Source of the DNA: Psammoneis japonica
Taxonomy: Eukaryota
DNA: 64,000 bases
Direction: 5' to 3'
Assembly (NCBI GenBank): GCA_008632985.1
Contig: QPGO01000047.1
Coordinates: forward strand, 186,001-250,000
Shown here: positions 18,871 through 49,760 of the stretch, in pieces
Layout of the letters: every line of letters starts with the position of its first letter
How positions within the stretch are numbered: position 1 is the stretch's first letter
The notes under the pieces: generated by a model
Databases searched by the model: none
The model's input: only the letters and a program-made list of their open reading frames with translations
Told to the model about the DNA's origin: nothing
Program-made: the position numbers and the translations under genes

Positions 18871-19485
18871 TTTCTAGTGACCGCCGCGCTTCTTTCGCTT
18901 CGTGGCCCATTCATACAATGCACGAGGTGCAGTCAATGAAACGACCGGCATTATTTCATGGCAGGTTCCCTGCGTCACACTTCTACCAAACTGTACAGGA
19001 ACAGGCTCTAAAACATTGAGCAAGAGGTGACATCAAAGCAAAACCAAGTCAGAATCAACGCCGTGAGCCAACCTACCAGCAGTCCATAGTCCACAATAAC
19101 TGCTTTTGCCAAATCTCGTGGTGTATCCGAATTGACGCCGCTACATCAAATATGACATCATCGTGTTGAAATCGTGGAATGGAGAGTCAACCGACGAACG
19201 TACTAACCACTCTTTCTGCTATTCAACGTGTTGACGTTTCCTAAAGGAAATATCACTGCGAGGAAAACAGCTGTTCGCTCAATAGTCCAATATCTAGCTT
19301 TATTTAGGGCGAGCAAGGGAGAGTTGTAACTAGTATCTTTTTGTGTTGGTCTAGAGGTATAATTGCACTTTTCACCAAGAATCGTAGGAAGGAGATGCAG
19401 TACTGCACGACCCCTGAACGACAAACTCGAGGGAACAACCAGATTCATTGCATTGATCAACAGAAAGTCTAGTTCACGACAACGA

Positions 19486-20478: not shown

Positions 20479-21286
20479 GGTCGTGACACGCATTCCGCTT
20501 TCTGAGTCTCTCGCCCACTCGCGCTCTATCGGTAAGAGCGCGAGTGCGAGTGGCGAGAGCACTCGTGTCCTGCCTTCGTCCGTCGGCAGCACTTTTTTTC
20601 ACTACAATTCTACGTGATTTTGGAATTTCAATGTAGATATAAGAATCTGTATTGGTACACATTTCAACAAAGTTGATTTGCTTCTCGCCATGATGACAAT
20701 TGAGACCGAATGCAGCGCGATTGATTTTCTTCTCGTCATGATGACAGCCCGACCGTGACTTCGCTTTGCCTTTTGGGGTCTGCAGCCACTGCACCGTTCG
20801 TGACGGGCCACAAGCTGGATGAAGTGTGCTGTAGCGGCGCCGCCACCACAACAGCATCACATCTCCAACAAACCTTGGTGCCAAACATGACGCTGCATCC
20901 ATCCAAGGAACACCCACACGTCGCAAGCAACAAGCGTTCTTCTTCAAGTTCATTGGCATTACAAGCAAAGCAAGAAAGCACCATGTCTGCAACAACAACA
21001 CTCAACACTGCCGAGTGAATGACACAAAATCAAGTCGAGTTGTTTGCCAAGTTCAGAACTCAATTTTGTCTGCCAACTCAATGGATTTGCGGATGATGTC
21101 TGGCGGAGGCCTCTCGTCACGGTCCAAGCTGTGTCGTCGTGATCCTACCCAAAAGTCACGATTTTGTCCGGATCTTGTTTCCAATGCTTTCCAGCACGTC
21201 TGCTGCCGTGATCCTGCCGGCACGAGGCAGCTTGTGCTCCAGTGTCGCTTTTTTCGGCACCCATTTGCCATTCCACCCATGCGAAC

Positions 21287-21830
21287 TTGTCAAGCTCATT
21301 GTTCGTGAACAGTTGGAAGACCTCAAGACTCGTCATTACAAGATCTTGCAGCTGCTGATGGGCACTCTTCACATGCTCAGTTCCCCAGCGCTGATTTTTG
21401 CGAGAAGGTCCTCGATGTTGCCACGGACGTTGCTGATTTTTGTGTCGACGCTCAATCGCGAGGTTGCGGCCGAGACTGCTCAAGAGCAGGACTCTGTCGC
21501 ACCATGGCGGAAGCCAAGAGCATGGCCTGCCAGAACATGCTGATTTGGGCCGTTCACAGATGCGCTGTGCGATTTCCCAATTTTGCCGAGTCGGTTGTTT
21601 TTGCTCTCATGGACTTTTTGGCTGCGGATGGTTCCACGCAGGTTGCTCTTTTTGTCAGAGCCATTGTCGAACAGCACATCGCACTGCGAGGATCCATCTC
21701 GCCCAAGTTGTTGGGTTTCATCAATGACAGTTCTTCGAGCAATGTAGTGTGTGTTTGTCTCTGGATCTTGGGTGAATGCTTGGATGCTGTGCAGAGGAAA
21801 TTGATGTGGAGGCCTTTGAAACTGTTTCCG
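21287..21830 (+). pseudogene. COPB1: Decayed fragment of coatomer beta (COPB1), copy 1
   Basis: VKLIVREQLEDLK..., AVHRCAVRFPNFAESVVFALMDFL, FVRAIVEQ, CLWILGEC; frameshifted. Confidence 0.75.
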
Positions 21831-23229
21831 GAAAGAAGCATGTTTTTTTTTTTAATTGCTTGACACATCCGTCGGCTTGGGATGCGTTGACACTGCCGTG
21901 TGGCTTCTGATGCATTGGAAGGCTCTGCCATCGTTGTTTTCGGTGGATCCTGCAAACTGCTGAGGCAAGTGGTGTCTTCGCAATGCCAACAAAATCATGG
22001 GAACCGCACTGATCGGTTCCCGTCATTGAGTGTGATCAGGTCAATGTTGTCGCTGCGTTGTCAACCATGGAAGCATTTTGCAGCGAATGTGGTCGAAGCA
22101 GATTTGATTTATTTGCAACAGAAGCAGACCGGGGCTCCTCCCTTTGGCCAACTGGGCTTGCTCTTCGACCCATTGCCAAGGAGCCAGGGAAAGTGGACGT
22201 TTTCGCTCCACTTCTAGCTTGCCTTGATCGTGTCAGGGAAGTGCGAAAGTTGCAATGGATCATGCCAAGGGGGAATTCGGGCGACTCATTGCGTCTGGGA
22301 AAGGTGTGGAGGAGATTGAAGGAGAAGTTGACCGTGGAAGGGAGGAAGTGCTCAAGTTGGCGGGACCCGAAGCGCCTGTTGGCATGGGAACGCGAGAAAG
22401 AGTTCTGATGTCTTTCGACATTTCTGACTTTAATTTGTTGACGGATGGTTGGTGTGGCAAACTGCGGTTCAACACGGTGGCTCAGCGATGAGATTCGAAT
22501 CTGATTCGCTTGGCCTTTGCACTTGCCATGAAGCATGACGACAACGTAGAGGAAGGAGATGATTTCTTTTTCGATTGGAAAGCCAGCACGGACATTGTTG
22601 GTCAGGAGAGCCCTTTGCCCTCTTGGCATTCGTACATTTCTGCATTGGCAGGCCCTCCAATGCACTTTGGACAGAGACGTCTCCTCATGGCGGACATGCT
22701 CGATGCAGAAAAAAGCATGTCCATCTGCCGTGCACACTCATTCCAAGAAGCATCAGAACAGAAGGCGGAGGATGCATGCTTGGCGACATCTGTTCAAGGA
22801 TCTTCGCCCCATTGGCCTGCCGCAGCAAAGGAGAAGACACAAAGCAGGCCCAAACAGTGACAGAAAAGACCCACGACCTTGCTCGCTGGGCAATGGATCA
22901 ACCAGAAACTGCTGCAATTCTCGCTTCAAAGGCGATTCGTGCAAAGTGCATTGAAAATGTCCTTCTTGATGCCTCGAGTTTCACAATCAAGTTGCATTCT
23001 TTCCAGCTGCCACACGAAATTTTTCGAGCATTGAGGCTTTTGCTCTCTTGTGGTTTCGATCTGAGGGGACATCTGGGTGGAATGGATCTACTTAGCCTGA
23101 CTGCAACAAGAGCTGCTGCATGGTCAGTTGGTCTTTGTTCTTGACAACTAGCAGCAGAGAGTGGCCACTGTCAATCTGCATTGAACAACAGGCAAGTCCG
23201 CAACTGTCACAGTCTAAAAAGGGTGCCAC

Positions 23230-25230
23230 ACTGGTCCGCCGGTGGTGACGTTCTTGGCCTTCGATCGATTGATTGCGAGTGCAAGCTGTGCCACGAACGA
23301 TGAAAAGTGCGGTTCAAACTAGTTTGCGACGACACGGAGAAGTGTTGGACAAATTTTTGTGTTTGTTTAAAATGTTTGCATTGCACAAGACTCTGCTCAT
23401 CTTGATCGAATGAAAGCAACGATAGATTGCCCAACTGAAATAAAATGGCAAAGTGTCTCCATGCGATTCCGTCTTGAACAGTTTCCTCGGCTTCAATTTT
23501 CCTTTTCCACTTGCCTCTGCTTTCAAAAAGAAGGCGCCTCTTCAGATTTTTGCTTCAGAAACAACTCGTTTTGCATGTCTGTAAAACGAGCATGAGTTTG
23601 AGTGCCACATGGATCTCTTGTTTTTGTTCACATGTTGTTCGAGAACAAAGACATGCTTCGGAATCAGCTTGATGAACATGTGCATCCAATGCAAGCTTGA
23701 ATTCGAGACCCAGCATGATCAATCAAACATTCCTGCACAAAGCACTTCCATGGTCGCACCTCTCATGTTGATGGCAAAGGCCTGCTTTGTCGAAAAAGCG
23801 AGCCAGAAAAACAAGTCACAGCCGCATCCGCATGAAAATGCTCGGCAATCCTCCCCAGTCGAACATCTTGTTGGAATGATCGTCGCAAGATTGCACTGAC
23901 GACATCCCCTCCCCCCATTGAGCACCTTACAATGTGCTGCAATCCGGATCGTCATCAAAGATGTCAATGAAAACCTGAATGTGACCTGAGCCGAGCTGGT
24001 CCATTGGGTGGTCCTCGGTCGTCTGTTTCTCGCGTCCGTCGCCCAATTTCATGTCGTAGAACGGGTCAAGGTCATCGTCAAAACAGACCCTTAAAATCTT
24101 TGCCCTCCATGTCTTGTTTGAATGGCGACAATGCACGCACTGGCTCTTCTTGAATTTGGACGTTGGCTCCTTCCAAGGCTTCTTGACACAGTCGTCGCTG
24201 TGGCCCGACAGATCGTCCTCGGTTGATGGCAAAAACAATCCCGTAACGTGCACGCGAATGAGACAGGCCAGCACCACTGCCAACATGAGACGGAAGAGAA
24301 ATCCCATGAGGCCACTGACATCAAAATTCTTGAAAGCCATGCCGATGTGAAACACGACAACAGCAGTGGTCAAATCGAAGTGCTTCAAGACGGCTGCTGC
24401 GCTCGCAAAGTCGACACGCTTGACACATTCCTTGGACATGCCAACAACGAGTCCCACACACTTCAATGAGATGGTTTTGGACTTGATGGCAATGAAATGG
24501 AGTTGGCTCCAGATGGGAGACCCGATGATGGAGGACCAAATCGATTTGACAGTGACGTTTGGAAACCACTGCTGCTTGATGTGCAAAAAGTCCTCCGTGA
24601 GCCCCAACAACCCCTGGTGCAATCCACAGACAAACGTTGAGAATGTCGTGATGGAAACAACATCGAGATCTTGCAGTGAGGCGCAATGGCCAACCCAAAG
24701 AGCAAAACGAAGCCAATCGCTCGTGCTCTTGCGTTGAGTCACAACTGCAATCAAGTCACAGTGGCTGACATTGATCACGGCGTTCATAAAGAGGACAGAG
24801 GACATCATGGTGATGATGGAGATGCAATGTCTTTGTTGCTTGTACCTTCAAAGAAATTGTGACAGCTTGAATCGATGCCTTTCGAAAGGTGCTCGGACAG
24901 TCTTCAGTGCAAAGACACGTAGAATGTACGAGGAATCCCGGCAAAAAGAAAGTCTTGGCACCGTTTCACCATGCGGCATGCCAATGTCGGGCTGGATAAA
25001 TGCATTGCCTGAAACCGACCTCTAACATCATGGTCACTGCCGGCAAACATGTTGGTGTTGCGATCAATTCGCGGTTGCTTTTTTGACGCTTCGATGGATG
25101 TTTGTGTGGGTGGGTCAGGAAAGTTCAACATTTCCTCTCATGTCCTTTCGTCTCCCAAATGTTTCCCATTTAGCAGAGGCAATTGTAAAGCGATGTCTGG
25201 TTTCGTAGGATGAGCTTTTTATTTAGGAAT
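23230..25230. repeat. TpA-stripped copy of the segment at about 47750-49760 (same orientation)
   Basis: Colinear alignment over about 2 kb, including flanks. Confidence 0.95.
23927..24808 (-). pseudogene. Hypermutated paralog of ORF 48437..49318; frame still open
   Basis: Same 293-aa length; substitutions dominated by Y>C, Y>H, I>V, I>T. Confidence 0.8.
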
Positions 25231-26239
25231 CTTTCTTCGTGCACACTTCATCACAACCTCCTCCAAGGATCAACTGGCAGACTGTCTGAGGCACTTGAAG
25301 CTTTACGTCCTTTGGTCATGGGTTGGTGAGTGTGAAGGGCAATTCCTCTTCATAAATGACAGCTGCCGGAATCAGCTGAAATCGATCTGATTGGTTGATT
25401 GAACTTACAAGACACAATGAGAGGGAGTGTGAAGATTGTCAAATCGTCATTGCGGTCATTGTGACTCGCCGTTACAAAGACGACTCACGTCAGCAAAAAA
25501 AACGTCACTCGCCTCAAGTGATTCAGAAGAGGGGACGTTGAGAGTCTCCTCTCCTCACAATCTCAATCTAGTCGCTGCAACACTGGCACCTGAGAATCGC
25601 CCCAACACCCTTTGCATCTCATTGCACTCTGTTTCTGACAATGCTCTGGATGTTGTGCTGACACGCTCACTGATGAAAAGAGTCATTTTGCCCTCAAACC
25701 AGTGGTGAGAGCGAGTGTGGGGGGTGATGGTTGACTGGCGCCAGCAATGAAAATTGTGCCAGCAATGGGCACCAGCAACAACTTTCCCTGCCAGTGACAT
25801 GTTGATGGCAACCAGGAACAGCATTGCAGATTTTTCATGCCAGTGGTTTTCTCGTGAGCTGTGTGTGCCTTTTTTAAAACAGCAAGAATGCAGCCAGCAG
25901 CTGCGCCCCAAGTCGCAGTGGCTCCACCTGCTCAGCACCCCCGTGCTGCGGCAAGCACTGCATCCACTGCTGATTGCAACAAGAGCCAATCTGTTGGTTG
26001 ATTGATGAGACCCACCTCAATGTTGATGCGAGTCTGTTCAGAATTTTGTGTTGCAAAATTCATGGAGCCCAAGTTCAGAAGTGTGGCCAGTCACTCTCAC
26101 TGCCCCCGTTCCTTGTCCTCTTTTGGGCATTGTTTGACTGTCACATTCTTGAATGGTGCATTGGCAGGAAGCTGCACATTTGGGCACAATGATCAATCCA
26201 ACAGTGCCCGATGGGAAAATCCAGATCAGCTGTCAATCT

Positions 26240-26930
26240 AAAGAACCTTCCATCCATCGAAGCTTCCTGTTGAGTCACAATGACAGGTGTGCTAGCTGAG
26301 ATTGCTTCCAGTTGGACAAGAATCAAAACATGGATCCACCAACTTTTTGTGCAAGGGACCAATGTTGGCAACTTTCATCTTCCATGCAAAGTGTCCTGCA
26401 GCCACCATGGCGATCACTGACAAAAGGACCAATGGCGCAAGGAAGCAGCAGCAAGGTGATTGGTCTCTGACACTCTCCAACAGTCTTGTGAGTGATGCCA
26501 TCAGCCTCACAATGAACCCAATCAAGAGGGTCAGTCATGGTCCAGAGCACAAAAACCACAATTGTCACAACAAAAAGAGGCAACATTGGCCCCGTCATTT
26601 GTTGTGGTCCAACCCTGCAACACTTGAGTTGAAGGACTTTGAAGGACCTGCATCATCTTGGCAAACAAAGCTCCATGTGCCGTGGTGTGTTGCAGTGCAA
26701 TGAGCCATGGAGTTGCCATGCACGCCTTGTTCAGCTGGGTTTTGTTCCAGCCTGCTCTTTCATCAAAGGAAAAGGCGAACATTGCCAAGGCCACCAGCAA
26801 GGAACCATGAGAGACAAACCCACAGCACAGAGAAGGTGCTCAGATGGCTCTGCTCAATGCTGCCAACAAGCAACAGAGGCTCCACAGTGCCATTTTCTGC
26901 ACAAAAGGAGGCTCGCCTGAAGTGTCACTC
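26240..26930 (-). pseudogene. Decayed class C (7tm_3, GABA-B-like) GPCR fragment
   Basis: FDERAGW...ACMATPWL...GALFAKM and VLWTMTDPLDW...VGEC, spread across frames. Confidence 0.6.
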
Positions 26931-27024
26931 TGTTGGTTGCCTTGTTTTCCAGATGGGCAAAAGGCAGTCAGTGATGGTTGTGTTTCCTTGCCACGGACAA
27001 ACACTCCATGCCATCCATGGGTGC

Positions 27025-28320
27025 CCCGCACTGTGAGAATCCATCTCAACAAAATTGTTGGCTTTTGTTGATGGCATTTCTTCCAGCAATGCAGTGCATG
27101 CTTGCCTCTGGGGATCTTGGGTGAATGCTCAAATGCTGTGCGGAGGAAACCAATGTGGAGGCCTTTGAAACCATTTCTGATTGCTTGGATCCAACACCAT
27201 TCTTTGTGATTGCCAAGGAAGACAATCATGAAGAGAAGCACAAAGAAGGAGAGGTGTCCAAAATTGTTTTGAAGAATGTTGTGTCAGCAAACAGCACCAA
27301 TGCAAGACCCAAACCATCTGCTCCAAACAGCCATTTGTCCGGACAAGTCAGACAATGCTCCTCATCTGCGCAAGATGGTGATCGGCAGCTGTGTCTTCAT
27401 GGGAACCATTCTCCAGCTTCCTGCCTGACCAAGTTGTGTTTGAGGACTGTGGATTTTCTCAAATGGATGTGTTGGTGATTGAGAAAATGATGTCCAATGC
27501 ACTGCTTGTCATGTGCAGTGCAGCAAAAATGGCTGAGGCCAGCATTTCAGCTCAGTGTCCTGCTGTTGCTGATTGTTCAGAACACATTGCACCATTCTGC
27601 TGTGCACTGTTGATGGGCTCCAAGGCTTGCATTTTGCTCAAGGATGCTCTCCGCAACAATGGCAAAGCATGTTTGCCCAGTTTTTTAAGACACTCAGGTG
27701 CAAAGAAACCAAAGATGCTTTGGCTGATGATGAGGATGGTGCAGGCAAATTGGCCATGGCACAGCTTGACGGCTTGATTCACTTTTGTCAGCTGTGTTCC
27801 ATGGCCATGCAGGATGGTGATGTTGACCTTGATGATGTCACCATCCTTGATTGTGACATTGTCTTTAAGATTCTGACAGCCATCAATTGTGCTCCCAACA
27901 CACCAGCCAACTTGATGGTGGAGCTTGCCATGATGGGTGACATGAAGACTGTCAAACACCCACAGTGTCAAAACATTGGCCCTCTTGATCGGATCACGTG
28001 TGCTGTGCTTCCATTGAGGTCTCCTCCACCAAGATGGCTCACAAGGCGACACAAGAGAAGGGATGCATCAGCATCTCAGCGACATTTGCATGGGCATTGT
28101 GGATTGCACTTGCCCACAACTTGTGCAGATGAGGCCTTTTCATCCACCATCAGGGCCAAGTTTGAACAGGAAAACAAGGTGGCTGCATTTCATTCTTGAT
28201 TCCCAACTTCTTGTTGGATTTTGTCAACCACATTGTCAAGTTGATCAACATGCATTGCCCCACTCTTCTTGATGTGTCAAAAATGGGAAGCTTCCCCATG
28301 CCACCAACCTCTGTGCAAGA
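27025..28320 (+). pseudogene. COPB1: Decayed coatomer beta (COPB1), copy 2, C-terminal half
   Basis: AQLDGLIHFCQL, DCDIVFKIL, VELAMMGDMKTVKHPQ, AKFEQENKVA, ATNLCAR. Overlaps copy 1 in sequence (27025-27175 vs 21678-21825). Confidence 0.75.
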
Positions 28321-31300
28321 AGGCAAGACAGTGCTTTTCCTTGATGCACTTGCCAACTGTTTCCCAGTTTTGTGCTGGACATTGCACAACATGTGTTTCA
28401 GTCATGAGCACTGTCTGTTGATGCCTGAAGAAAGAAACTTTTCATGAAACCGTCGGCACTGAGAAGTTGCCATTTGACGCATTCAGCACCATTGCAACCA
28501 CAAGATCGAGCGTGCCAGTGTGGGATTGGTCCTCGCTTGTGCTCACACCTTTGGCATGCTGGTGTGTCATGTCTGCTTTCTGATTCAACCTGAATTTGCA
28601 GTTTTGAATCATCAACCAAAACAAGCATGCTTTTGTTGTTTTTGAAGTGTCTTTGACAAAGAAGCTCTCATTGATCTTTCAGTCAAGAAGAAGGGCGGCA
28701 ATGACAGCAATTGGCTGGGTGTGCATGCATTGATCATCGTGAGACACAAGGCATTGCTTGGGAGATTGCATCACTGGCATTCAGAGATCAATGCCTGAAT
28801 CCAGGTGTTGGAACAAACAATTGGAATGGAGAACAAAAAGAGCACTCTGAACTAAAAAACACCACTTCTTCAGCCTTGTGCTGCTGTGTCAACCAGACCT
28901 GGCCTGCTGCGCTCTCTGCTGGGCTTCTGTCCCTTGTTTTGGTTTCCCTGGTTGCTGCCAGAGGGTTGATTGCTTCCTTGCAGCCAACAGTTGATGGCCA
29001 TGAAATGAAAAGGCCTGCAAGGCTGAGCATCTTGAGGATCAAGCATCTGACAACAGATGTGGTTGGCAACAACATTGAAAAGCTGCATGAATGACAAAGT
29101 TCTGTGCATTCATTCTAGACACCATGGAATGTTTTCCTTCATTTGTCACCACAGAGAGGAGCCGCTGTCCTTTCCAATGCATGAACAAAGCCAAACTGTG
29201 ACATCAACACTCACCTGGCCATCTCCATTCTTCCACAATTTGTTCTCCATGTCCAAAATGAGCAAGGGTTTGGTTCACTGACTGCCATGGGTCTTGATCA
29301 AATGCAGAGTTGTTGTTTTGCATTGAAGCACCAATCATGCCTGGCTCACATTTTGTTCCGGAAAACACAAGTGATGGGGTGGGACCCACTGTTGCTTGAA
29401 CCTTGGTGTTTCAACAAAGACTGGCTGCTGCATCGTTTGAAGAGTTGAGTGGTGGAACCAGGGCACAAAGGGTGCATTTCTGTGTTGACAAGTGATGAAG
29501 ATGAAAAGCAACATCAGCAAACATTCTTGAATGAAAAGAAACATGGGCACAAAATTGACTTGTGTTGGGGGTGCATTTGAATGCAGTGCAACACAGTGAG
29601 TGCACCACACAGCATTTTGGATTGCACGACAAACTTGCACAATGTTGGCAAGTCTTTGATGTGCACAAAAGCTGTTTTGTAGTGTGAAATGGAGTCAAGA
29701 GATGCCCCCATGCATGCTCAATTTCCAGGGGTGTAAAACAAGCAGTTCATGAGTCCAGTGGTGACTCACGATCCTCGCGGATCTGCGTGCAACACACACC
29801 CAGCATCAGACAAAACAAAAATGCTGCCCGTTGCTTGACCAAGCCCAAGCAAGCATCTGAAGGAAACAGGATGGGCTGCTTTCTCCTCGTTCTGTGCAAA
29901 AACAGCAACAACATCTGCCAGATCAATGTCTTCATCTGGCATCTCCACATTCTCCAAATCTTGACCCTCTCCTTCCAGAGCAATGCCATGTTGCAACAGC
30001 CCATCATCTGAAGGTTCCTCTGAATCATGCATTGGTTCTTCCACATCTGCTGGATCATTCAAGGCATTGTCAGGTGCCTTGTCTGCTGCTGGAGCGACTT
30101 CTTTGGCAACAGCATTGTTGTCAATGGCAACAGCAGAATCAGCCAAGGGCTCCTCTTTGCACTCTCCTTCCAGCACAATGTTGTGATGCAATGACTTGAC
30201 ATCCACAGGATCCTCTGAATCATCTGTCAGCACATCCAAGGCATTGTCTGGCTCCTCACATGCTTGGACAATTGCGCCCACTAGAGCAACTTCCTCCACT
30301 GCAACAAGATCAGCAGCAGCAGCAGCAATGACAGGATCAGCAATTGGTCCCTCAACCACTGCATCTGCTGGAGTGACAATGACCTTTGACCAGCTCAGCT
30401 GCCACTTGAGTCTGCACCCATCCATGCCAATGATCACACCTTGGATGCATTTGATGCTCACAAATGTGTCAGTCTTGTTTCCACTTGTGCTCAAGCAGCA
30501 CAGCAGCCAATTGCTCATCATTCAGGGTGGGAATGCAATGCAGGCATCAAAGAATGCATTTGGCCACCCCACCAGTGGGGGCTGGAGGAAGGTCGCCAAC
30601 AAAGACATTCTTGATCAGTTCTTCATCGGCAGCCACTCTGATTCCCACTGACAACACTGCCAAGCCAGCCTGTCTTGCTGCTTGTCAATTCTTCTCAAAG
30701 CAAAGTCCAGCTTTGGATCTGACAGCACTGGAATCTTGGTTGCACATTTTGGATCTTGAAGAACTTTTGGAGCAGCCATGCCTGTTGGGATGGCACAGTC
30801 ACAAACACTGTGCACAGGTTCTTCAGCCCGGCAGTGGTCTCCATCTGGTGCTCCTGCGGCAAAAGCATTTGCACTTCAACAACAGCAGCCAAGTGACCAC
30901 AAACCACAAGGGAACACAGATGACACAATGCACAGTCCATGCAACTGATGCAACCACAAGAGCATCCAAAACAGCATTGCCCACTTGATCCCAAAGAAGT
31001 GTGGCAAGGTCATCAATTCCCACAACTTGGCAGCACAAGAAACAGACAGCGGTGCCAATCAACTTCAGGGAGCAGCATGGGAGCACCGCAGCAAATGCAG
31101 CAAGGAAAGCTGTGCAGACTGCAAGGACAAAGGGCACCAGTTCTTCAATCATGCAGCAAATTGTGTCCACGGCAATGCACGAGAAAATCCATGCTTCCCA
31201 AAGCAAACCACTGACGACTCAGCCGTGGTTTTTGGTTTGCCGTGAAACACATGCAGCAGGAGATTGACAAAGAGCATGATCAGTGCATTGTGTGCAATCA

Positions 31301-34300
31301 TGGTGGGGGCAATGGCATCAGAAAAAACAGATTGTCAACAGTGTGCTTCAATGCAAGCAAAACTTGAAATGGTGCAGCAAGCAAGACGTTGCTCATTGTT
31401 TGTGACTGGTGTTGTTCATGAACATGCAGAAACTGCTCTGGAAGAGCCCGCAGAAAAGCCAACAGTCAGCCACACTTTTCAAGTTGTGGTTGGATGTTGT
31501 GGCACATTTGCACTTGGTTGCTTGCAGGCTTCAAGCTGGAAACAAGAATCAGAGGCCAGGAGTGATGTTGGATGCACCCACAATGAATGTCATCCATTTT
31601 AGAGCCGTTCTCTTCAATGAAATTCAGTGTTGCCACAACAGAGCCCATTCTTCTCAGGCCCACCACAAACATGCAGCCTGCAGATTTTGGCGCTTGCTGC
31701 AGTGACACGCCACACCTCAAACTGGTTGAATGATCCTCCCGATCACACCATGGTTGGCTGACAATGAATGCATTCTTGATTGAAAACATCAACAGGGCAA
31801 GACTGTCCTTGTCAATGAGGAGCAGCCTTGCCAAGTCTGAGCTTGACAGAGATGGTCCTACAATCCAACAATGCAAGAGCCAAGCTGAGAACATCTTTGG
31901 ATTTCTTTTTGCTTTGTTGTGGCAACACAAGTGCCAACGGCGCACTCAGAAGCAAGTCACCAAGAAGCACAGTTGATCTTTTCAAACCACACGATTCAAA
32001 TGAAATGACAAATTTGGCAATGCCACACTTGTGGCTGAAAATGAGCATCAATGTGCAACAAAATGTCCTTTGAAGCCCAGATGACAGTGACCACCTGCTC
32101 AGCTGGTTTTTGAAAATTGCAACACCTGTGGAAGGCACAATTGCATGTGTGCAAAGTTCGTTGCTTCTTGTCAGTCAACATTTTCACCAAGGAGTTTTCT
32201 GAGGGGCTTGCAGCAAGCTGCTCCCAAAGAGCCAATTTCAACCTCCAAGACTGGCTCAATTGATGTTCCAAGTTTTGCAGCACTGTCACCTGCTGAGCAG
32301 AAAATGGAGCTGCTTGATTTGCTCCAACAAGCAGAGAGTGCTTTTGCGCTTGCCATTGATGTGCAAGCAACAACGGTCAATGGAGGTGTTTGTCCTGTGC
32401 TGTTTTGAGTCTCTCTCTCTCTCTCTCTCTTGGGCAGAAGATGGTGCATTCACAAGGGCTGCAGAGTTTCTCTGTTTTGTGCAAAAGACCACACAAAGGC
32501 CTGTTCCAGCTCCAGGTGATGCACGCAGGCTCAATTCCCATCACTGGCCCATTTTTGCATTTGGCGCAATGAACTCCTTCAAAATCGGTTTTTTCCAAAA
32601 TTGAATGGCGAGTGTGAGTGTGCACAAAACTGTTGTTTTTTGTGCACACTTGCCTTTCAATTTTCAAAACAATTGAATTTGAGGAATTTAATGTGCTGAA
32701 CTGCACAGAAAACCAGCCTCTTGTTTGATGAATTGCTCATCACCTGGGGCTGGAACAGGCCCACAGACAACAAGGTGCAGCAGCATGCATGCTTTGCTGC
32801 AAGCTTCACCATGACTGTCAAACACACAAAAATGACAGTTGTCAAAGATTGTTGTTGAGGAGCAGTGTGCGCACAACCTCTTGTTTCTCATTCTCCACCA
32901 CCAACAACCCCACGCAGCAGATGCTCCCCACTCTCAACATCTTCATCATTGACAAATGCAAGAGTTCTCACCTGCCTGCATCTCCTTCTCTGTGATTGGA
33001 TTTTTCCATGTGCAGCACATTTCCCATTGCTTGATCAGCTTCTGTTGTCATGGTGGTGCAGAAAGTGATGCATGATGCCATGTGTGACATGTGTGGTGGA
33101 TGCTGGGCTGAACCCGACAATGCCAGATGGGTGAATCAAGTCCAAAATGATGTCGTTCATGCTGAAAGTGTCAAGCCAGGGAAAATTAAATTGAGCCATG
33201 ATGTCCATTGCGCGGACCTTTCCAACTTGGAAGCCATTGACTGATTCTTCATTTGAGCACCAACCACAAGAGGCATGGTCAAGCTTCGAGACTGACAACG
33301 CGGTGCACTGATTTCTGAATTCCAAAGCACCTGCTCTCTGACAACAACTCCACCAGAACATGCCATTTGGGTTGCACACAGTTTTGTTGGCATCACTGTT
33401 TGCAACAAAACTCTGCCACATGTTGTTGTCATGGTGGGTGTGATGCGTGATGCATGAGATGCAGTGGATGATGTGGCACCCACTGAACCCGACAAGGCCA
33501 GATGGATGATTCAAGTCCAACCAATCAACTCAAATCAATTGTGACATCAGCTCGTGCTGAAAAACTTGGCAGGTGCAACCCAACCTTGACGTCCATTGTG
33601 TGGGCCTTTCCTGCTCCAGCAACAAAACAGCCCCAACACTGTGCAAGCTCACGCTTTTCATCCTTGCTTGCCCATCAACATGGAAAGCAACACAAGTTTG
33701 TTCTCACTTCTTGTTTGACAGGTGCTTTGTGAAGCAGGGGGGAAGTCAGTGCTGACCAGTTGCTCTTTTGTCTGTGATTGCATGGAAAGCCAATGGCTGT
33801 GCAAACACTCAACACTGGCACGGCGGGCTGGCGGTTGACGCTGGTGCTTTCTAAAAAGAATGTGTTGGACTGGGATGAGGAGTTTCTGCTTTTGATGCTC
33901 GTTGGGTGTGGCCCACCTGCGCAAATGTAACGTTCTTCTTGTGCATCAATTGATGAATTGATCCAGAATCCTTGAGTCAGGGCTGGGTTGAAAAATGACT
34001 TGCAGCTCCCTGCCCCCCCCCCCCCAACTTTTGCAGCCAAACACCTTGCCAAACCTTTGTGTTTGGACCATCAGAGATGGACATCTCAACCTGTCTGTTC
34101 TTTGTGTTTTTTGCTTGTTTTGCCCTGTCATGCAACAAAAAAAAACTCACAAACTTGTTGTCTCCTTGTGTCTCTCAACAGATTGTCGCATGCAATGGTG
34201 ATGCAGAAGAAGAAGCTCATTGGATGGAGATGCTTTTGAGAACTCGGGAATTGCACTTTTGGACCAAGCTTGCACTTGCATGGATTGGTCTCTTGGAGGA

Positions 34301-37300
34301 ATTGAAGGCTTGTTTGACAGAGTGGGAAACAGTCAAGTTGACACAAAAACAAGCTCTGGCACTTTTCATGGATGCTGTCAAGACACGATTGCATGGGTGA
34401 GGGCCACAAGCAGAAGAATCCCGCCTTGCACTCTGGAAAGTTGAGTCCAGAAATGAAAGCCTGTGTGGATGCCATTGTGAAGGCGATGGGCAAGTCACAG
34501 AACTGTCCAGTTGTCAGTGCCTCTCTGAAAGAGACTGTCACTTGTGGCTTTCATGGAAGCAAGAAGAGTGCACTCTTTGAGATTGAAAGTAAATTGGGTG
34601 TGGACGTGACGAAAGAATCCAAAAACAAGGCTGAGTGAAAAATTCTTTTTCGACCTGGCACTTTGTTTGTGATTCTTTTTTTTTGCAAACACAACAATCC
34701 CGAGTGCAGAAAGTGGAAGTTTGTTTCAGTGCAAGAGATTCATCAATTTTGGTGGAAATTGTCAGAGATGAGTGGAGCTTTAGATTTGCAAGATGAGTGG
34801 CAACTGCAGAGAACTTCCTGCTCCCTCCATCCGGAGGTGAGGTTGTGGGGGGGCATGTGGCAAAGACGGGTGTGCCCATTCCTGTCACAGTGTGTGCTGT
34901 TCTTGGCTGAGCAAGTGCATTGGATGCATTCTTGGAAGCAAGCATTTGCAAAGAAATGCCATCCATTGTTTTCATGCATGTTCTCTTTGTTGCATTCCAC
35001 AGCTTCATGCCCACCTGCTCCTCCCGTGTCTGGCCAGGTGGGGATGATGTGGGGTGTCCCCTGCATTGAAATTGCTTGCATTCAACTGGAGGTCTGCCAC
35101 AATGTCTGCAGCCACGGATTTTGATTGACAGAGTTTTGGGAAAATCTCTCACTCTGTCAGAAGCAGCCACAAGAGTTGCATCCACTCTGGCAGCCACAGC
35201 AAAATGCGTGCTTTTCCTTGGGACGGGCCATCAGGGCTGAATTTTGGAAAGTCTCGATGACACAAGTCCAGCAGAAAGCAACTGTGTCTTCCATCTTTGT
35301 GCAATTGTGCGATTGGCTCCAATGCATTTTTGCACTCCTGCTGCAATGCAATGACCATTTGACTGGCAACTCTGCACATGCAATCGTCTTGCTGCAATCT
35401 AAACCTGTTGAGCATTTCTCCAAAAAAAAAAAACAGCACCATCTTCTTTTGCTGCACTTGTGGCAACTAAAATGTTGCACATGATTGTGATTGCCATGTT
35501 GCAAAAATGGCACTCCTCCAGAAAACTGCTGTCTTTTGCAACACACATGATGTGAAGTGGTCGTGTGACACCCATGTGAGGAACAAGGCTTCTTTCCTGC
35601 AATTGCACTGCATCACGTCCTTGGCATTGTTGTGCTGCAAATGGTTGGGATCGCTTCACATTCCACCACCAGTGTGTGATCTTGAGTGCACTTGTAACTC
35701 TCAGGTAGAATTGCATGCACCAAAGTGCTGTTGTCAGTCCATGTGGCCATGCACTGGTCAAAGATTCATGCATGAACACAGATTGAAGATTTGATGATGA
35801 CACCACAATGACTTTTGAGAGAAGCACTTGTGTTGGGCCCTGTGAGGACTTTTTGCAAGAACCAGCATGGTGCAATCACCACCTTTGTAAAAATGTGCAG
35901 GACATGTGCCAAGAAACTCCAACTTTGCTTTTTGGTTGCTCTGGTTGCAATCAAAACAGCACCAAAAGACAAAAGCAATTCAACACAAAAACTTGCAGAT
36001 CACACTCCAAAATGCATGATGGATTTTTGGGAGAAAAAACTGGGTTGAAATTGATGCATCAGCCTTGTCAATCACAAAGCAAAGTGCACTTAATTGTCCA
36101 TTCGCAACCAAGGCACAACTCATGCAGGAATGTGCAGAAAATGCACTGGGCTCCTCATTCTGCACTTTTTCAATGATCTGGATGTGATCAAGTGCTGCTG
36201 AAAAATCAAAGACTGACATCATGACATTTTCTTGCCAAATGGCTCAAAATCTGCTCGCCAATCTGCTTCTGCTCACCTGAAAACTGCTCATTTGCAAGAA
36301 AACGAGCTCCCAGTGCAAGAAAATCTTGGTGGTCGTGCAAGCTGTTGCACGAGCATGACCCTGTGCAGAACAAGTTGTTTGTGCTTTCCCTCATTCTTTG
36401 GAGCAACATGCAGACTGCATGGAGATTGCCTGCACCGGCAGAAAGCCAGCAGAAGCAAGTGAAAAATCCACTTCATTTTTCTCGCAACATGGCCAAAATC
36501 TGCTTTGCTCACCCAACATGATGTGCCAGTTTTTGAGTTTTTTGGTGGCACTTGATGCAATTGAAATGGTGCCAAAATGCCCAGACCAATTGACCACCGA
36601 CATCACTTTTGCGGAAAATGGCAAACCACATGACAGAGCTTTGGGAGAAAAAACTGGGTTGAAATTGATGGCTGTGTTGAACTTGTCAAACAGAACACAA
36701 AGCACACTGTTTTGCCCAAAAAGCACACTTGCAATTGAAAAGCACACTTGAGACTGAATGCTCCCACACACAGAAATCCACACAGTCATCTGGCACATTG
36801 GAAAAGGTGCACTTGAATTGCACTTGAGCACACTTGTTTGTCTTTCCTCCATTTTTAAAATGGAGTTTCGTGCAACTGCTTCTGTGCTCCAGAGGAAAAG
36901 GCTTGCACTTTGGCATGTGCGCATGGCAGCGCTTGTTGCAGCGATGCAGATGCTGATCCAGCTCTTGCTGGAGGCCCATCCAACCAGCAGCAGCACATGT
37001 TCAACAAGATTTGTGTCGACAAGGCTGACAAGGCAGTTTTTTGATCAAATCTTTCGCCACCACGGGCAAAAGCTCATTTTCATTTTGAGCATTTGCGCCA
37101 TTCCACAGCAGAGCAGCTGTCACAAACAAGGATGAAATGGTGAAAGGGTGCTGTTTGCCATGACATGTGGCGATGCTTCATCGCAGCAATCTCTCAGAAA
37201 AAATGAGAAATGAGGGCCCTGCTTGTGTGTGCACAGTGCGAGCAAGACAGGGTGCAATGGCGCACACCATCCACACCCACAACAAAGAAAGACAAGTGGT

Positions 37301-38349
37301 CAATGCTCCCCACAAGCCTGGTCTGTCCAATTTTTTCCATTTTCTGTCCATGTGCAATTGCACGTGCCCTTGACAAAAAATCTTGCAGTTTGATTTCCAG
37401 ACTTGATTTGTTGCATTTTCAAAATTCTCAGCATTCTCACTGCCAACACCAATCAATCAAGTTGCCACAAAAACAAAAAACAAAAGCAATGGAACAAGAA
37501 CAAAACAAACTGCCAGAATTGCCATTTTGTTGACTCGACACCTGGGTGATCCTTTGAAGGATTCATGTTGTTGTCTGGCAATCACAAGGGCCAGCATGTT
37601 GCTTGTTGCACTGGTTCATCAATGTCTTGCTCACGTGCAAGTGTCAATTCAGGCCTTGTTTGCTGCCGGTGATGCTTCTTTTCAACTTGCAGCCCTGGAC
37701 AAAGATGGACACAAAAATCGGATCACACTTTTGGATCATGTGGCACATTGCATTCTTGATCTTCAAGCACAGCATCAGCAAGCAGAAAATGCACAAGAAG
37801 AGTTGCCATCCTTTTTTGCTTCAGCTCAACTCTTGGATCAGTGCATTGCCAAGAGCTGACAAAACAACAGCAACAGCAAGACAACAAGGACCAAGGTTGC
37901 ACCGCATCCTCCACACATTCTACAACGCAGCGATGCATGGTGCAGTGAGTCTCATTTGCATGCAGCAGTGTGTGTTGTGGTTCAACAATGAGCCTGTGTT
38001 GGCATCAGCCAATTGCAGACCAGCTGACAAATTGAGAAAAGATGCCAAGATCTTTGCATGCTTGCATCTTGTGGCTGTGTTGTCAAGGGTCAAAGCACGC
38101 CAGTGCAGTCAATGGTCAGAAGAGTCAAGGGGCAGGCATTGGGAGAAATGAAAAACTTTGGCAACAATGCCTCATCACAAATCTTTGAGCAACAGTTGCA
38201 GCAGCAAGCAGCAGTGCACGAATGATCCGGGTGCAGTTCATGATGCCTTTGATTTTGACCAAGAACCAGAGCACCCCAGAATTTGTGCCCTGAGTTGGAG
38301 GATTGACCCTGAACAGAGCTTGAGTGACTGACAGAGTCGAAGTGATGGG

Positions 38350-40600
38350 CAAATGCAGACAAGCTGCAAGGATGATTCATCTGATGAACCACAAAGCATT
38401 GACTGCACCATGTGCATGCCTGAGAATGTGCTTGCCATGGTGCAAGAAAGAGCAACCATTTGCTTGCTGTTTTGAAATGAGTCCACTGAACAGCAAACTC
38501 AGACAAGCAAGATTGAGCTGTCAGAGCTTGACGTCAAAGCCATCCCCACTTTGTTGGGTTGCATGCTGGTGCTTGGATGCATGTGTGATTCCTTGCATTG
38601 CTTGCTTGTGGTTTCATTGTGAGCAATCATGTTTTGTGTTGGTTTTCTGATCATGTGCGTGCCTCCCCCCATGCAGCTTCTGCACCAGACACCCCTGAGG
38701 ATTGCTGCAAGCCTCTGGGGCATGTGAGCTGCATGAAAACACAAGCAGGGACATGATGCAAATGAACATGGAATTAATTTGTGCACACAAGTTTTGAGGG
38801 AAATCTGTGCGCTGAATCTGAGTCACATTTGGTGCTGACTCAGTCATCTCACAGGGACATCACAGCTGGCTCACTGATGTTGAATGCAGTCTTGAGTCAG
38901 CTTCACAGTGCAGTGTCTCATGGGCCACAATGGCATGTGTGTTGCTTTGGCAGCAGTGCAAAGACAGGTGGGCACCATCTTCTGAACTGGGGTGGTGTCT
39001 GGAGCTGATCTTTGAAGAGGGAGTCCACGATCATCTCAAGCAAAGATGTGCTGCTCTCATGATGGCAATGCTGAACCGTGCATGACAAATCTGCATGCTT
39101 TGGAGCATGGTCTCTGCCACTTGTCAGATGTCTTTCCAGATGTCTGATGCAGATGGCTTTCACCTTGCATGTTGTGCACTTGTGGGCTGCTGTGATGAAT
39201 TGTGTGGGAGCATGCAAGAGCCCTTGTTGCTTCAAAGTTCTGCTTTGCAAACTCTGATGGACATTGGACAGACAATCCTGCAAATTTGATTGGCAGAGTG
39301 GCAAGGACCAGTCTTGGGTCATCACCCCCCACCAGGGTCTCACCTGTGAGTGCTGGCAGGAATTGGCACTTGATCATTTCTTCCACATTGGCAAAAGAGT
39401 CACCACAGGCTTGTGCCACACATTGAGCACATTGCCGCTTGTGTTGCAGAGACTTCTGCAGGCCAGTGCATGCTGTCTGGGGGTGGCCGATCACTGTCTC
39501 AGCAAGTCCCTGGATGACCGAGGTCCACTCCTTGGTTGTCTCTGCCATCCATTCATCAAAGGCTTCTACATTCTCCTGCAAAACCTCCCAGGAGGTGGCC
39601 ACCAGTTTCAGCGGTGAAGCTGAGGTCTCTAAAACATTTCCTTGCACTCTCCAGGTTGCATTCTGGGACAACAAGAATGTTCTTGGAGTTGTCAGCAGGG
39701 CAGCATTCATGCCTTGGCCCTGTGGCTTGCCGTGTCAGGAAGAAGTTCTGCAGGTCTCGTGAAATGTTCCTGCTGCAGTGGAGCCATTGGCGCGCCATTG
39801 CTGGCTGGTGGTGAGTTGTCAAGAAGTGTCCACGTGTTGACAACGTTGCCACTGCTTTCTGTTGAGGAACCTTGTGCATTGACGCTCATGCTGCACGTGT
39901 TGTTGCAGCTCCTTCTTTGCATCTTGCCATGCTTTGCCCCCACTTGCACACTGTCTTTCTGCAGCACTGCTCTTCTGTTGTGCAGAGGGTCTCTGTCTCA
40001 TCCCCTTGGGCCTTCCCTGAGATGAGCACCTGGAGACAAGAGCATTGATTCTGCAGCACAATGGCCACGGCAATCCAACAATGAGGCCAAGTCACAGACA
40101 CGGCATTGAGAAGAGTTCACATCAAACATGGTGACTTGGAGCCACATTGTCTGAAGCTCAACAAGCTCTCAAGAGCTTTGGTCTGTTGTCATGTGTTTTT
40201 GCCAGAGAGTTTGCACCACCCCAATGCCTCCACACAGTGATGTGGATTTGGAGGACAAACAATGCACAATGGCAGCTCTGAAGTTGTGGATTGTTCCTTT
40301 TGCCTGTGAGCAGGCAATTTGCAGTCTGAAAGCTTTTGTGGCTCGTTTGCTTTGTTTGTTGGCTGGCGCCACAACAATGGTGCCAGAAACTGTGCATTGC
40401 ACCACTCTGCAAATCCACTGCACTCTCAGTTTGTGGAGTGCAAAAATTTAACTGCATTTGCCTTGTTCCATCACAAGTGACGAAACTCATGAGCCATTTT
40501 GGCTCATTTTGACTGTTCAACCCAGTCAAACAACCTGCTGTGTGGCCCTGCCTGTGAGGAACTTGTTGCATTTCTCTGTTCAGCTCATCTCATCATTCTT
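38350..40600 (-). mobile_element. Decayed non-LTR retrotransposon (RT C-terminal region plus probable RLE endonuclease region)
   Basis: SKNILVVPECNLE...GGHLLGGFAG, PQTACTGLQKSLQH, FLPAL...LATLPIKFAGL, ILRGVW; many frameshifts. Confidence 0.7.
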
Positions 40601-41510
40601 TCACTGTGGACCAGTGGGGTTCTTGCTGCACTTTCTGTTTCTGCCATTTGTGGTGCTGTGTGGTGGAAATGTGCACAGGAGGATCTGGCTGGCACCACAA
40701 TTTCTTTAAAAAAGGTGTGCCACACAATGTGTTTCTGTGCTTGCCCACATTTCTGGCACATGATGGGCTTGACAAAAGACAATCAACATGAGCTCAGCAT
40801 CAACAGCAGCACACACTGGGATCCAGCGCACACCTGCTTTTGCATGGCCACATCCATGCTCACAACAAGCCATGTGCAGGGGTCATCATAATTCTGAAAA
40901 TGGAATTTTGAAGTGTTCATGCACAAAAGCATGTCACTCACACAAAAGTTGTCAGGCAAAGTGTCAATGGTTTCAGGGGAAAATGATTCCTTGAGGCCTC
41001 GGCCAAGCGGAGAAGCACGGCAGAAGCACGAGAAAAAAATCGGCCCAAACCCTGATTTTTGTGTTTTTTCTGCATAAATTTCTACATGATTTTTGTGCCA
41101 GTGCACATGGCTTGTGCCAATGCAACCAGAGACCAGTTTTTGTGAGCCTCCTTGTGCTGTCTCAGAGGCAGGTTGAGTGGAATGGCTGAGAGTGAGCGTG
41201 CAAACACTTCGCTGAAGCTCCTCTTTTTGTGCGACACTGTCTGAAATCTTGGCATGTCTTTTGTGCAACTTCTCACCTTTTTAGCTGGGCCTGAGTGGCT
41301 CCATCTGCTGGGTCATCATCTGGCTTCATTGGAGGTTCCAACTCAAGATCAGATGAGTGTGCCCTGAAGTCACCTGAGTCAGTGTGCTCCCATCCCCATG
41401 CAGCTGGCACACACAGTGCAGCACCGTAGTAGTTTCATCGCGGCGTCTGTCGTCCATACCGCGCCACAAAAGATGCCGGCAAGAGAGATAATAAGAGAAA
41501 ACGATGATGG

Positions 41511-47749: not shown

Positions 47750-49760
47750 AGTCCGCCGGTAGTAGCGTATCGATCGATTGCGAGTGCAAGCTGTGACACG
47801 AACGACGAATAGTGCTTTTTATCTAGTTTACGACAAGACGGAGTGTTGATTAAATTTTTTTGTTTGTTTAATCTTTTTATTGTACAAGACTCTACTCATC
47901 TTGATTGAATGAAACCAAAATAGATTGCCCAACTGAATTAGAATGGCAAAGCGTCTCCTGCAGAGGGAGCAAGAGTTTCTCGTGTTGAATAGTTTCCTCG
48001 ACTTCAACTTTCCTTTCTCGATTATTAAACAGCCGCCCCTCTACTTTCGAAAAAGAAGGCACCACCTTCATACCGGTACGAATTTGGGTTTGAGTGCCGC
48101 ATGAATCTCTTATTCTCGTTCACATGCTGTTCGGAAACAGTAACATGCTTCGGAATCAGCTCAAATTAAATGTATATCCAATACGAGCTTGAATTCAAGA
48201 CCCAACGCAATCAACCAAACTCTCATTCAACAATATAAAGATGGTTGCCCTCTGATCTCGATAGCAAAGGCCTTTTTTCGGAAAAAGAGAGCCCGAGTTG
48301 AACACAGAATTCAACACGCAAACTCGTCACACCGCATCCACATGTGACACTCGGCAATCCTCCCCTATCGAACATCTTGTTGGAATAATCGTCACAAGAT
48401 TGCACTAACGATATCCCCTTCTCCCCATTGAGCACCTTACAATATGTTGCAATCCGGATCGTCGTCAAAGATGTCAATAAAAACCTGAAAGTGACCTGAG
48501 CCGAGCTGGTCCGTTAGGTGGTCCTCGGTGGTCTGCTTCTCGCGTCCGTCGCCCAATTTCACGTCGTAGAACGGGTCAAGGTCATCATCAAAATGGACCC
48601 TTAAAATCTTTGCTCTCCACGTCTTGTTTGAATGGCGATAATACACGTACTGTCCCTTCTTGAATTTGGACGTTGGCTCCTTCCAAGGCTTCTTGACACG
48701 GTCGTCGCGATGGCCCGACAGATCGTCCTCGGTTGATGGTAAAAACGATCCCGCCAAGTGCATGCGAATGAGAATAGCCAGAGTCACTACCAATATGAGA
48801 CGCAAGAGAAATCCCATGAGGCTACTGACATCAAAATTCTTGAAAGCCATGCCGATATGAAACACGACAACCGCAGCAGTCAAATCGAAGCGCTTCAAGA
48901 CGGCTGCTGCGCTCGCAAAGTCGACACGCTTGATGCATTCCTGGGAAATGCCAACAGCGAGTCCCATACACTTCAATAAGATGGTTTTGGACTTGATGGC
49001 AACGAAATGGAGTTGGCTCCAGATGGGAGACCCGATGATGGAGGACCAAATCGATTTGATAGTAACGTTCGGAAACCACTGCTGCTTGATATGCAAAAAG
49101 TCCTCCGTGAGCCCCAACACCCCTTGGTACAATCCATAGATAAACGTCGAGAATATCGTGATAGAAACAACATCGAGATCTTGTAGTAAGGCGCAATAGC
49201 CGACCCAAAGAGCAAAACGAAGCCAATCGCTCGCGCTCTTGCGTTGAATCATAACTGTAATCAAGTCATAGTGGCTGACATTGATAACGGCGTTCATAAA
49301 GAGGATAGAGGACATCATGGTGATGATGGTGATGCAATGTCTTTGTTGCTTGTACCTTCAAAGAAATTGTGACGGCTTGAATCGATGCCTTTCGAAAGGC
49401 GCTCGGACAGTCGTCAGTACAAAGACACGTAGAATGTACGAGGAATCCCGGCAAAAAGAAAGTCTTGGCACCGTTTCACCATACGGTATACTAATATCGG
49501 GCTGGATATATGTATTGGCCGAAACCGACCTCTAACATCATGGTCACTACCGGTAAACTTGTTCCGACATGGTGGTGTTGCGATCAATTCGGTTGCTTTT
49601 TGACGCTTTGATGGATGTTTTTGGGTCAGGAAAGAAGTTCAACATTTGCCATTATGTCTTTTCGTCTCCCACGTATCTTATATTTAATGACTTGAAGTGG
49701 ATGCAATTGTGTGACGATGTCTGTTTCGTAGGATGAGCTTTTTATTTAGGGGACTCTTTC
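47750..49760. repeat. TpA-intact copy of the segment at about 23230-25230
   Basis: Colinear alignment; normal TA content. Confidence 0.95.
48437..49318 (-). CDS. Hypothetical membrane protein with a C-terminal SH3/Tudor-like barrel; 5' end uncertain
   Basis: Hydrophobic segments, then FKKGQYVYY...AKILRVHFDDDLDPFYDVKLGDGREKQT. Confidence 0.6.
   Translation of the reverse strand: MMSSILFMNAVINVSHYDLITVMIQRKSASDWLRFALWVGYCALLQDLDVVSITIFSTFIYGLYQGVLGLTEDFLHIKQQWFPNVTIKSIWSSIIGSPIWSQLHFVAIKSKTILLKCMGLAVGISQECIKRVDFASAAAVLKRFDLTAAVVVFHIGMAFKNFDVSSLMGFLLRLILVVTLAILIRMHLAGSFLPSTEDDLSGHRDDRVKKPWKEPTSKFKKGQYVYYRHSNKTWRAKILRVHFDDDLDPFYDVKLGDGREKQTTEDHLTDQLGSGHFQVFIDIFDDDPDCNIL

Follow-up and report, generated by a model that had tools for sequence, protein, structure and literature searches.

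The DNA studied here is a window of 64,000 nucleotides from Psammoneis japonica (all positions are window coordinates), and the subject is a block within it, tract A (25700-41300), in which the dinucleotide TpA has almost vanished. Tract A retains 35 TAs, and their flanks are far from random: at all 35, a purine follows the A on its 3' side on one or both strands (66.9% in the background, P = 8e-7), and for 22 of them this holds on each strand (15.7% in the background, binomial P = 4e-10).

The window is densely filled with genes and is eukaryotic. Outside the stripped tracts, such frames matched cytochrome P450, tubulin-tyrosine ligase, CAF1 nuclease, RRP36, amino-acid transporter and homoserine O-succinyltransferase families. 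G+C content is level along the window at about 0.47, and TpA density falls in blocks (approximately 17100-18900, 20700-41350, 49850-54400 and 61480 to the window end). The tracts, which have no strand, and the gene that bounds the largest block on its left are the following:

25700..41300: tract A, a TA- and CG-stripped block with 35 TAs left
20700..25699: tract B, the less advanced part of tract A's block, with 40 TAs left and CG mostly kept
19486-20592, minus strand: RRP36-like gene (Pfam RRP36 match), the left boundary of tract B
49850..54400: tract C, an independent TA-poor block with 19 TAs left
61480..64000: tract D, a TA-poor block running off the window, with 10 TAs left
17100..18900: tract E, short and partly stripped, with 20 TAs left, overlapping the open reading frame (ORF) 17490-18479 on the minus strand

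The edges of the largest block are sharp. Near 20700 and 41350, between the RRP36-like gene and a gene with a GCK domain, the number of TAs per 300 bp drops from 10-11 to 1-2, and the adjacent genes are untouched. Within tract A, observed/expected ratios were 0.03 for TA, 0.21 for CG, 1.84 for CA and 1.88 for TG, compared with 0.59-0.61 for TA and about 1.0 for CG outside the tracts. The other dinucleotides displayed ratios of 1.24 for AA (1.08-1.11 outside), 0.96 for GA and 0.87 for AT. AA, CA and GA are undepleted, and the loss of A-ending dinucleotides is confined to TpA. When the DNA outside is taken as a proxy for the ancestor, tract A has lost 394 TA and 451 CG per 10 kb and has gained 864 TG plus CA; a gain of 864 is close to the combined loss of 845, so that the books balance for TA changing to TG or CA together with CG changing to TG or CA.

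The contexts of the 35 survivors were compared with those of the 1360 TAs located outside the tracts, in strand-collapsed NTAN classes (survivors in tract A, followed by the share of the class outside):

TTAA: 10 survivors; 3.1% outside
CTAA/TTAG: 9 survivors; 7.8% outside
CTAC/GTAG: 6 survivors; 13.4% outside
GTAA/TTAC: 5 survivors; 12.1% outside
CTAG: 3 survivors; 4.9% outside
ATAA/TTAT: 2 survivors; 13.8% outside
ATAC/GTAT: 0 survivors; 15.7% outside
ATAG/CTAT: 0 survivors; 11.9% outside
GTAC: 0 survivors; 9.1% outside
ATAT: 0 survivors; 8.2% outside

The difference is strong (chi-square 106.9, a value reached by none of 200000 multinomial draws; G = 70.4, 9 degrees of freedom, df). An earlier note on this DNA, made by eye from the letters alone, had proposed this very comparison after counting roughly 30 survivors and placing about three quarters of them in TAA/TTA contexts, and our counts agree closely with both estimates (35 TAs, 26 of them, or 74%, in such contexts). 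The sites that it cited are real, those at 25875, 27686, 33187 and 36856 being TTAA and those at 28853 and 35400 CTAA; a further one, given as 40706, is likewise a surviving TTAA, but its exact position is 40707. Its remarks that a few survivors are CTAC, GTAG or CTAG (9/35) and that ATA/TAT is nearly gone (2/35, versus 675/1360 outside) were also borne out.

The same bias recurred in tract B (n = 40, Monte Carlo p 0.002), tract C (n = 19, chi-square 33.9, p 0.0006) and tract E (n = 20, chi-square 38.5, p 0.0002). Tract D alone was not significant (n = 10, Monte Carlo p 0.09) and pointed in the same direction. Pooled, the 89 survivors of tracts B to E differed from the background with G = 76.1 (9 df), TTAA being seen 11 times for 2.8 expected and CTAA/TTAG 19 times for 6.9, as opposed to a single ATAC/GTAT for 14.0 and two ATAG/CTAT for 10.6. 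At the level of trinucleotides, the ratio of inside to outside tract A rose from 0.01 for TAT and 0.03 for TAC to 0.08 for TAG and 0.14 for TAA.

These contexts are well described by a two-strand model in which the survival of a TA is the product of two weights, each depending on which base follows the A, on its 3' side, on the strand concerned. The fitted weights in tract A were 1 for A, 0.48 for G, 0.17 for C and 0.03 for T (residual G 6.1, 6 df, p 0.41). The less advanced tracts B to E gave 1, 0.75, 0.35 and 0.17, respectively (residual p 0.13), that is, the same rank order with a milder contrast. A first-order kinetic model with one dose per tract and rates common to the five tracts (80 cells) yielded relative loss rates by 3' base of 1 for A, 2.5 for G (1.4-7.8), 5.4 for C (3.1-16) and 8.6 for T (4.8-25). 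It fitted all five tracts (deviance 87.0, 72 df, p 0.11), and the likelihood-ratio test (LRT) against a model devoid of context gave 124.6 on 3 df.

To examine the reach of the context effect, the flanks of in-tract TG and CA were taken as the standard of comparison for survivors, since tract flanks are themselves mutated. With all tracts pooled and against these in-tract controls, positions +1, +2 and +3 each contributed (LRT 67.6, 57.8 and 45.5, respectively, on 3 df), and +4 added nothing. Among the dinucleotides that follow TA, AA was enriched 2.99-fold and GA 2.56-fold, as opposed to CT, TC, CC and TT, which were reduced to 0.23-0.30-fold. Position +2 was occupied by A in 66% of the survivor half-sites (28% outside), and 79% had A or T at +3. 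Protection thus attaches to half-sites of the form R-A-W, where a purine (R) at +1, an A at +2 and an A or T (W) at +3 protect, and a pyrimidine (Y) at +1 exposes; the spared site is T-A-R-A-W on both strands. The earlier note had seen in the survivors the specificity footprint of a mutator, and their contexts depart indeed both from the background and from the in-tract TG/CA flanks. It had further suggested that the mutator disfavours TAs next to A/T runs. The impression of A-tracts is real, but TAT/ATA, which is equally A/T-rich, is the fastest target and TAGA is spared too: what protects is polarity, not A/T-richness. That interpretation was thus right in substance and partly supported, and needs sharper wording.

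Direction of change could be read from a duplicated gene segment. Repeats within the window comprise three pairs found by blastn and one weak inverted match in purine/pyrimidine code, and only one pair is informative as a before/after comparison:

23264..25247, no strand: mutated segment copy, inside tract B, 83% identical to 47769-49772
47769..49772, no strand: unmutated segment copy in normal DNA (TA observed/expected 0.50-0.58), used as ancestral proxy
23927-24808, minus strand: gene frame in the mutated copy, 293 codons, the full frame still open
48437-49318, minus strand: gene frame in the unmutated copy, the counterpart of 23927-24808

In the block copy, the 85 TAs present in the normal one read TG (30), CA (27), TA (17) or something else (11). 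Of the changed ones, 57/68 are accordingly transitions to TG or CA, which are about equally frequent and interspersed; no strand clustering of the two outcomes was found in the pair (36 runs, 29.4 expected). Conversely, the block copy has 19 TAs, 17 of them at positions where the normal copy reads TA as well. The flank dependence reappeared in this pair independently of any choice of background, TA being retained at 6/12 YTAR sites versus 3/28 RTAY sites (Fisher p 0.012); per strand, A had changed to G at 43/93 positions with a 3' pyrimidine versus 19/64 with a 3' purine (p 0.046). The two predicted proteins are 84% identical (235/279 residues) and display Tyr to Cys/His changes. Since TA changing to TG or CA never creates TAA or TAG, and creates TGA from TAA only, genes are disabled by missense changes and not by stops. 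A search of the Atlas with the 293-amino-acid (aa) duplicated gene gave no usable match.

Other copies of parts of the block were found in the one public DNA run listed as containing this stretch, used as contigs (run X1); no RNA run was listed for it. Among the 40 differences listed out of 209, 11 have TG or CA in the window and TA elsewhere and one shows the reverse; 15 have TG or CA in the window and CG elsewhere, and 13 are of other kinds. None of these 40 coincides with a tract A survivor.

The loss of CpG behaves differently. Its survival in tract A spans only 0.10-0.43 by context, and tract B, which has lost about 90% of its TAs, keeps 40 CGs per kb versus 56.9 outside. Along what is one continuous block, CpG counts per 300 bp are 10-22 in the left 5 kb (20700-25699) and 0-6 in 25700-41300; either the parts differ in age or only one of them was methylated. 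Because the context effect is so weak, CpG decay was treated separately, and the idea that CpG survivors form a second footprint of the same enzyme was rejected. We read CpG loss as a decay of its own, slower and little dependent on context, which probably corresponds to deamination of 5-methylcytosine in silenced DNA.

Taken together, the observations are best explained by a TpA-directed A:T-to-G:C hypermutation that swept the tract and turned TA into TG or CA. On this explanation the A of each strand is acted on separately, and the bases on its 3' side govern the rate: fastest in T-A-T and T-A-C, slower in T-A-G, slowest in T-A-A, and slower still with A at +2 and A or T at +3. As the loss of either A is enough to destroy a TA, what remains after near-saturation is Y-TA-R, above all TTAA and CTAA in T-run/A-run junctions. 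The agent might be a single enzyme that recognises some four bases on one strand (5'-T-A-Y followed by any base but A). We hold it to be very probable that the flank rule is a property of the mutating process. An enzyme of the TadA/ADAT fold acting on DNA as an adenine deaminase would be the simplest agent, a tentative proposal to which we give somewhat less than even credence; the requirement of this fold for a target A preceded by T or U fits, only TpA being lost.

Several points weigh against this picture. The pooled multiplicative fit misfits (G 13.6, 6 df, p 0.034), mainly through an excess of CTAC/GTAG (24 versus 15.3 fitted), and an unexplained +5 term occurs in tracts B to E (T rarer among survivors; LRT 17.8, in-tract controls) and is absent in A. 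The direct test on the segment pair is small (84 sites) and modestly significant. For the ancestral NTAN spectrum, neighbouring genes or in-tract TG/CA flanks had to serve as proxies; an odd ancestral composition as the cause of the bias is countered by the in-tract control, the mass balance and the segment pair. None of the adenine deaminases compared below has a profile that fits the 3' order T > C > G > A. Finally, the strands give mirror-image data, so that A changing to G at T-A-Y is indistinguishable from T changing to C at R-T-A.

This last point leaves room for a chemistry of thymine, in which the T of 5'-R-T-A-3' would be modified (e.g. by hydroxylation to 5-hydroxymethyluracil, 5hmU, or 5-formyluracil, 5fU, mispairing with G) and yield T-to-C changes with the same footprint, its rule then reading the base 5' of T in the order A > G > C > T. 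Thymine-modifying enzymes exist in protists, and dinoflagellate 5hmU favours TpA. The data are strand-symmetric, with equal and interspersed TG and CA outcomes, and every result can be read on the other strand. Nothing in the window favours modification of T, however, and the sole experimental report of TpA hypermutation proposes deamination of A, as a suggestion and not as a proof; we regard the thymine version as unlikely. A little less unlikely, though still improbable, is an effect of DNA shape, whereby a TpA at the junction of a T-run and an A-run would be structurally unusual, its base hard to flip or unpair, and would be spared by any TpA-directed agent. The 9-fold enrichment of TTAA among survivors and the composition of +2 and +3 would agree with this, and TATA-like contexts, the easiest to open, would suit a breathing model as the best targets. 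On the other hand, TAGA, which holds no A-tract, is spared like TAAA (2.56x versus 2.99x), which speaks against a pure A-tract effect, and TAC (0.03) is struck almost like TAT (0.01) though it is not easily opened. Enzyme contacts and DNA shape are not separable from these data; TAGA and TAC speak for base read-out.

The remaining explanations fare worse. Survivors could be new TAs that arose after the sweep, through G-to-A or C-to-T changes at the abundant TG and CA or through slippage-type errors at T-run/A-run junctions, a possibility that the earlier note had itself raised against its reading. Tract A has no ancestor of its own for comparison, and the mutated gene copy has two TAs (out of 19) with no TA at the matching position in the normal one; yet the other 17 are ancestral, and the spectra predicted for new TAs were rejected. 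They call for 1.8-2.6 TTAA (10 seen) and for 14.4-17.0 of 35 in ATA-containing classes (2 seen), and the Monte Carlo p values for new TAs were 2.5e-5 for transitions, 0 of 200000 for transversions and 0 of 200000 for any single change. Even if new TAs arise and are removed according to context, the footprint still reports the mutator, and we consider this origin of the survivors very improbable. Error-prone repair synthesis of the Pol-eta type, with its WA hotspots, has even less to commend it: TA is a WA motif and A to G is a common Pol-eta error, but AA, the other WA motif, is undepleted and the TA changes are predominantly transitions (57/68). Least credible of all is selection, i.e. that the remaining TAs are TAA/TAG stops or other functional motifs kept by live genes. 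All 35 survivors do read TAA or TAG on some strand. However, the 5' base of N-TAR survivors has an influence equal to that of the 3' base and mirroring it (A 2, C 15, G 11 and T 29, versus 17.6, 12.1, 17.6 and 9.7 expected; chi-square 55.8, p 5e-12), as predicted by two independent strands and not by stop-codon selection. The frames of at least 90 codons in tract A gave one relic of a coatomer-beta gene and three Pfam matches below cut-off, and one frame across that relic has TGA stops throughout (see below).

The contents of the stripped DNA were surveyed with a Pfam scan of 139 frames of at least 90 codons in tracts A to D (20500-41500, 49800-54200 and 61300-64000). It uncovered two relics:

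27573..28196, plus strand: coatomer-beta relic in tract A (Pfam Coatamer_beta_C, E 7e-7)
21309-21860, plus strand: second coatomer-beta relic (Pfam Adaptin_N, E 7e-10)

A stretch of about 160 bases within the second (21673-21831) resembles 27020-27180, with 80% identity in bases and 95% in purine/pyrimidine code; the relics seem to be copies of a host housekeeping gene swept along with repeats. Frame 1 across the relic in tract A (26296-28444, plus strand) contains 16 stops, 16/16 of them TGA, as expected where TAA and TAG are erased and CGA decays to TGA. No full-length relative of this relic was found among 267 candidates at E <= 1e-5. Beyond the two coatomer-beta matches, the 139 frames gave only three Pfam matches (PAN_4, 7tm_3 and FRQ), all under Pfam cut-offs. 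No recognisable live gene was found in tract A by Pfam in frames of at least 90 codons, and no transposon or viral domain in frames of that size in the window, where transposon relics of tract A may have escaped.

Tract A is a mosaic in copy number, its summed contig depth in run X1 ranging from about 70 to 670-1220 for a single-copy level of about 65. Depth is about 70 at 25970-29304 and 37976-40643, and 670-1220 at 31973-32639, 36642-37308 and 40644-41300; single-copy and multi-copy parts are equally stripped. An inverted duplicate elsewhere in the window (1-941 and 44387-45315, 0.94 kb, 95% identical) is not hypermutated, with 29 TAs and 62 CGs in the first copy and 31 and 57, respectively, in the second, which indicates that repetition alone is no trigger. 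Tract E comes after the 3' end of a 645-codon frame (15191-17128), and the ORF that it overlaps is open over 329 codons and devoid of a Pfam family; this tract may reflect the process spilling over into genes, or a dead gene.

The process matches a TpA-to-TpG/CpA hypermutation for which a 2026 preprint on Bigelowiella natans is so far the only report (Mettrop et al., bioRxiv 10.64898/2026.01.13.699255). In mutation-accumulation lines of that alga, two integrated viral regions, of giant-virus and virophage DNA, acquired 231 single-nucleotide mutations, of which 230 were A to G or T to C, all of these at TpA, and its genome is reported to contain TpA-poor, CpA- and TpG-rich clusters enriched in transposon and foreign domains (bioRxiv 10.64898/2026.01.13.699255). 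Both cases share changes that are almost exclusively A to G or T to C at TpA, giving TpG or CpA, and that are confined to regions lying beside normal genes. They differ in host, a rhizarian alga there and Psammoneis japonica here, and in extent, TpA being near-saturated here (observed/expected 0.03) compared with a Rho of 0.45 reported for the nucleocytoplasmic large DNA virus (NCLDV) region of B. natans. Moreover, the process covers copies of host genes here (the coatomer-beta relic and the 293-aa gene duplicate) and is accompanied by CpG decay. As for a foreign origin, Pfam gave only the coatomer-beta relics in the stripped DNA, and parts of it are multi-copy (depth 70-1200 versus about 65 for single copy). 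The main text of the preprint gives no flank rule beyond TpA (bioRxiv 10.64898/2026.01.13.699255); the present analysis adds a two-strand model, rate ratios, the reach to +2 and +3, and tests of rival explanations. Full-text literature searches did not bring up any account of TpA loss in diatom repeats.

Repeat-induced point mutation (RIP) of Neurospora and other ascomycetes changes C to T mainly at CpA and thereby creates TpA. Like the process described here, it is a regional, near-saturating transition hypermutation in a dinucleotide context that kills repeats and leaves a compositional scar. Here, in contrast, TpA is destroyed (0.03) and CpA raised (1.84), a direction confirmed by the segment pair; RIP makes stop codons, whereas the present process cannot make TAA or TAG; and the 0.94-kb duplicate, in spite of its 95% identity, is untouched, whereas RIP would strike any duplicate some hundred bases long. 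Identity with RIP was rejected because TpA falls instead of rising and this duplicate is spared.

Among adenine deaminases, TadA has as its natural target the U-A-C-G of a tRNA loop, and we know of no natural TadA reported to sweep chromosomal regions. TadA and the adenine base editors derived from it deaminate an A that follows T or U, and the A48E variant of TadA-8e is reported to edit A mainly in 'YAC' (PMC13109818), in agreement with TAC being a good target here. This 'YAC' preference is the nearest known profile, but the agreement is partial: a 3' T is here at least as good as a 3' C and the footprint reaches +3, and base editors are engineered and Cas9-guided. The comparison of survivors with TadA/base-editor and Pol-eta profiles, as proposed at the outset, thus gave a partial likeness to the former, and the WA profile of the latter was not matched. 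The eukaryotic relatives of TadA of the ADAT2/ADAT3 type are also able to deaminate A outside tRNA. In DNA of E. coli, however, the amphioxus enzyme BjADAT2 is reported to prefer GAA and TCG (PMC10354150), contrary to the profile found here. ADAT-linked A-to-I editing of mRNA in Fusarium displays 86% U at -1 and preferences several positions downstream, and favours UAG and UAA with +1 A ~ G > U > C (PMC4817773). This 3' order is the reverse of the T > C > G > A observed here. ADARs, to our knowledge known only from animals, act on RNA. They share with the present process an A-to-I change and a preference for 5' U, but the 5' preference is reported as graded, U > A > C > G, with G first on the 3' side in the human enzymes (Eggington et al. 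2011, as quoted in PMC4817773), while here the 5' T is near-absolute and a 3' G is poor. ADAR-type editing was rejected on this 3' order.

The mutation process is rare and barely described, and the rule is useful mainly as a fingerprint for finding the enzyme. A quantitative flank rule is the kind of signature that identified the targets of APOBEC and AID; it provides a test for any candidate deaminase, narrows the enzyme search, and gives a means of deciding whether the processes here and in Bigelowiella are the same. YTAR versus RTAY among remaining TAs is also a more specific statistic for scanning genomes than TpA depletion alone. The rule explains the coding consequence as well, tyrosine codons being prime victims and stop codons the last survivors. 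One may further speculate, although we find it doubtful, that a single algal DNA adenine deaminase with the target 5'-T-A-Y-B (B, any base but A), sparing T-A-R-A-W and common to the stramenopile studied here and to the rhizarian, serves to defend the genome against chromatin that is silenced, duplicated or foreign. If so, the flank rule would be the fingerprint of that enzyme, both for finding the process in other genomes and for its biochemical identification, and the defence would kill genes by rewriting their tyrosines without ever making a stop codon, TAA and TAG being spared and TAY destroyed.

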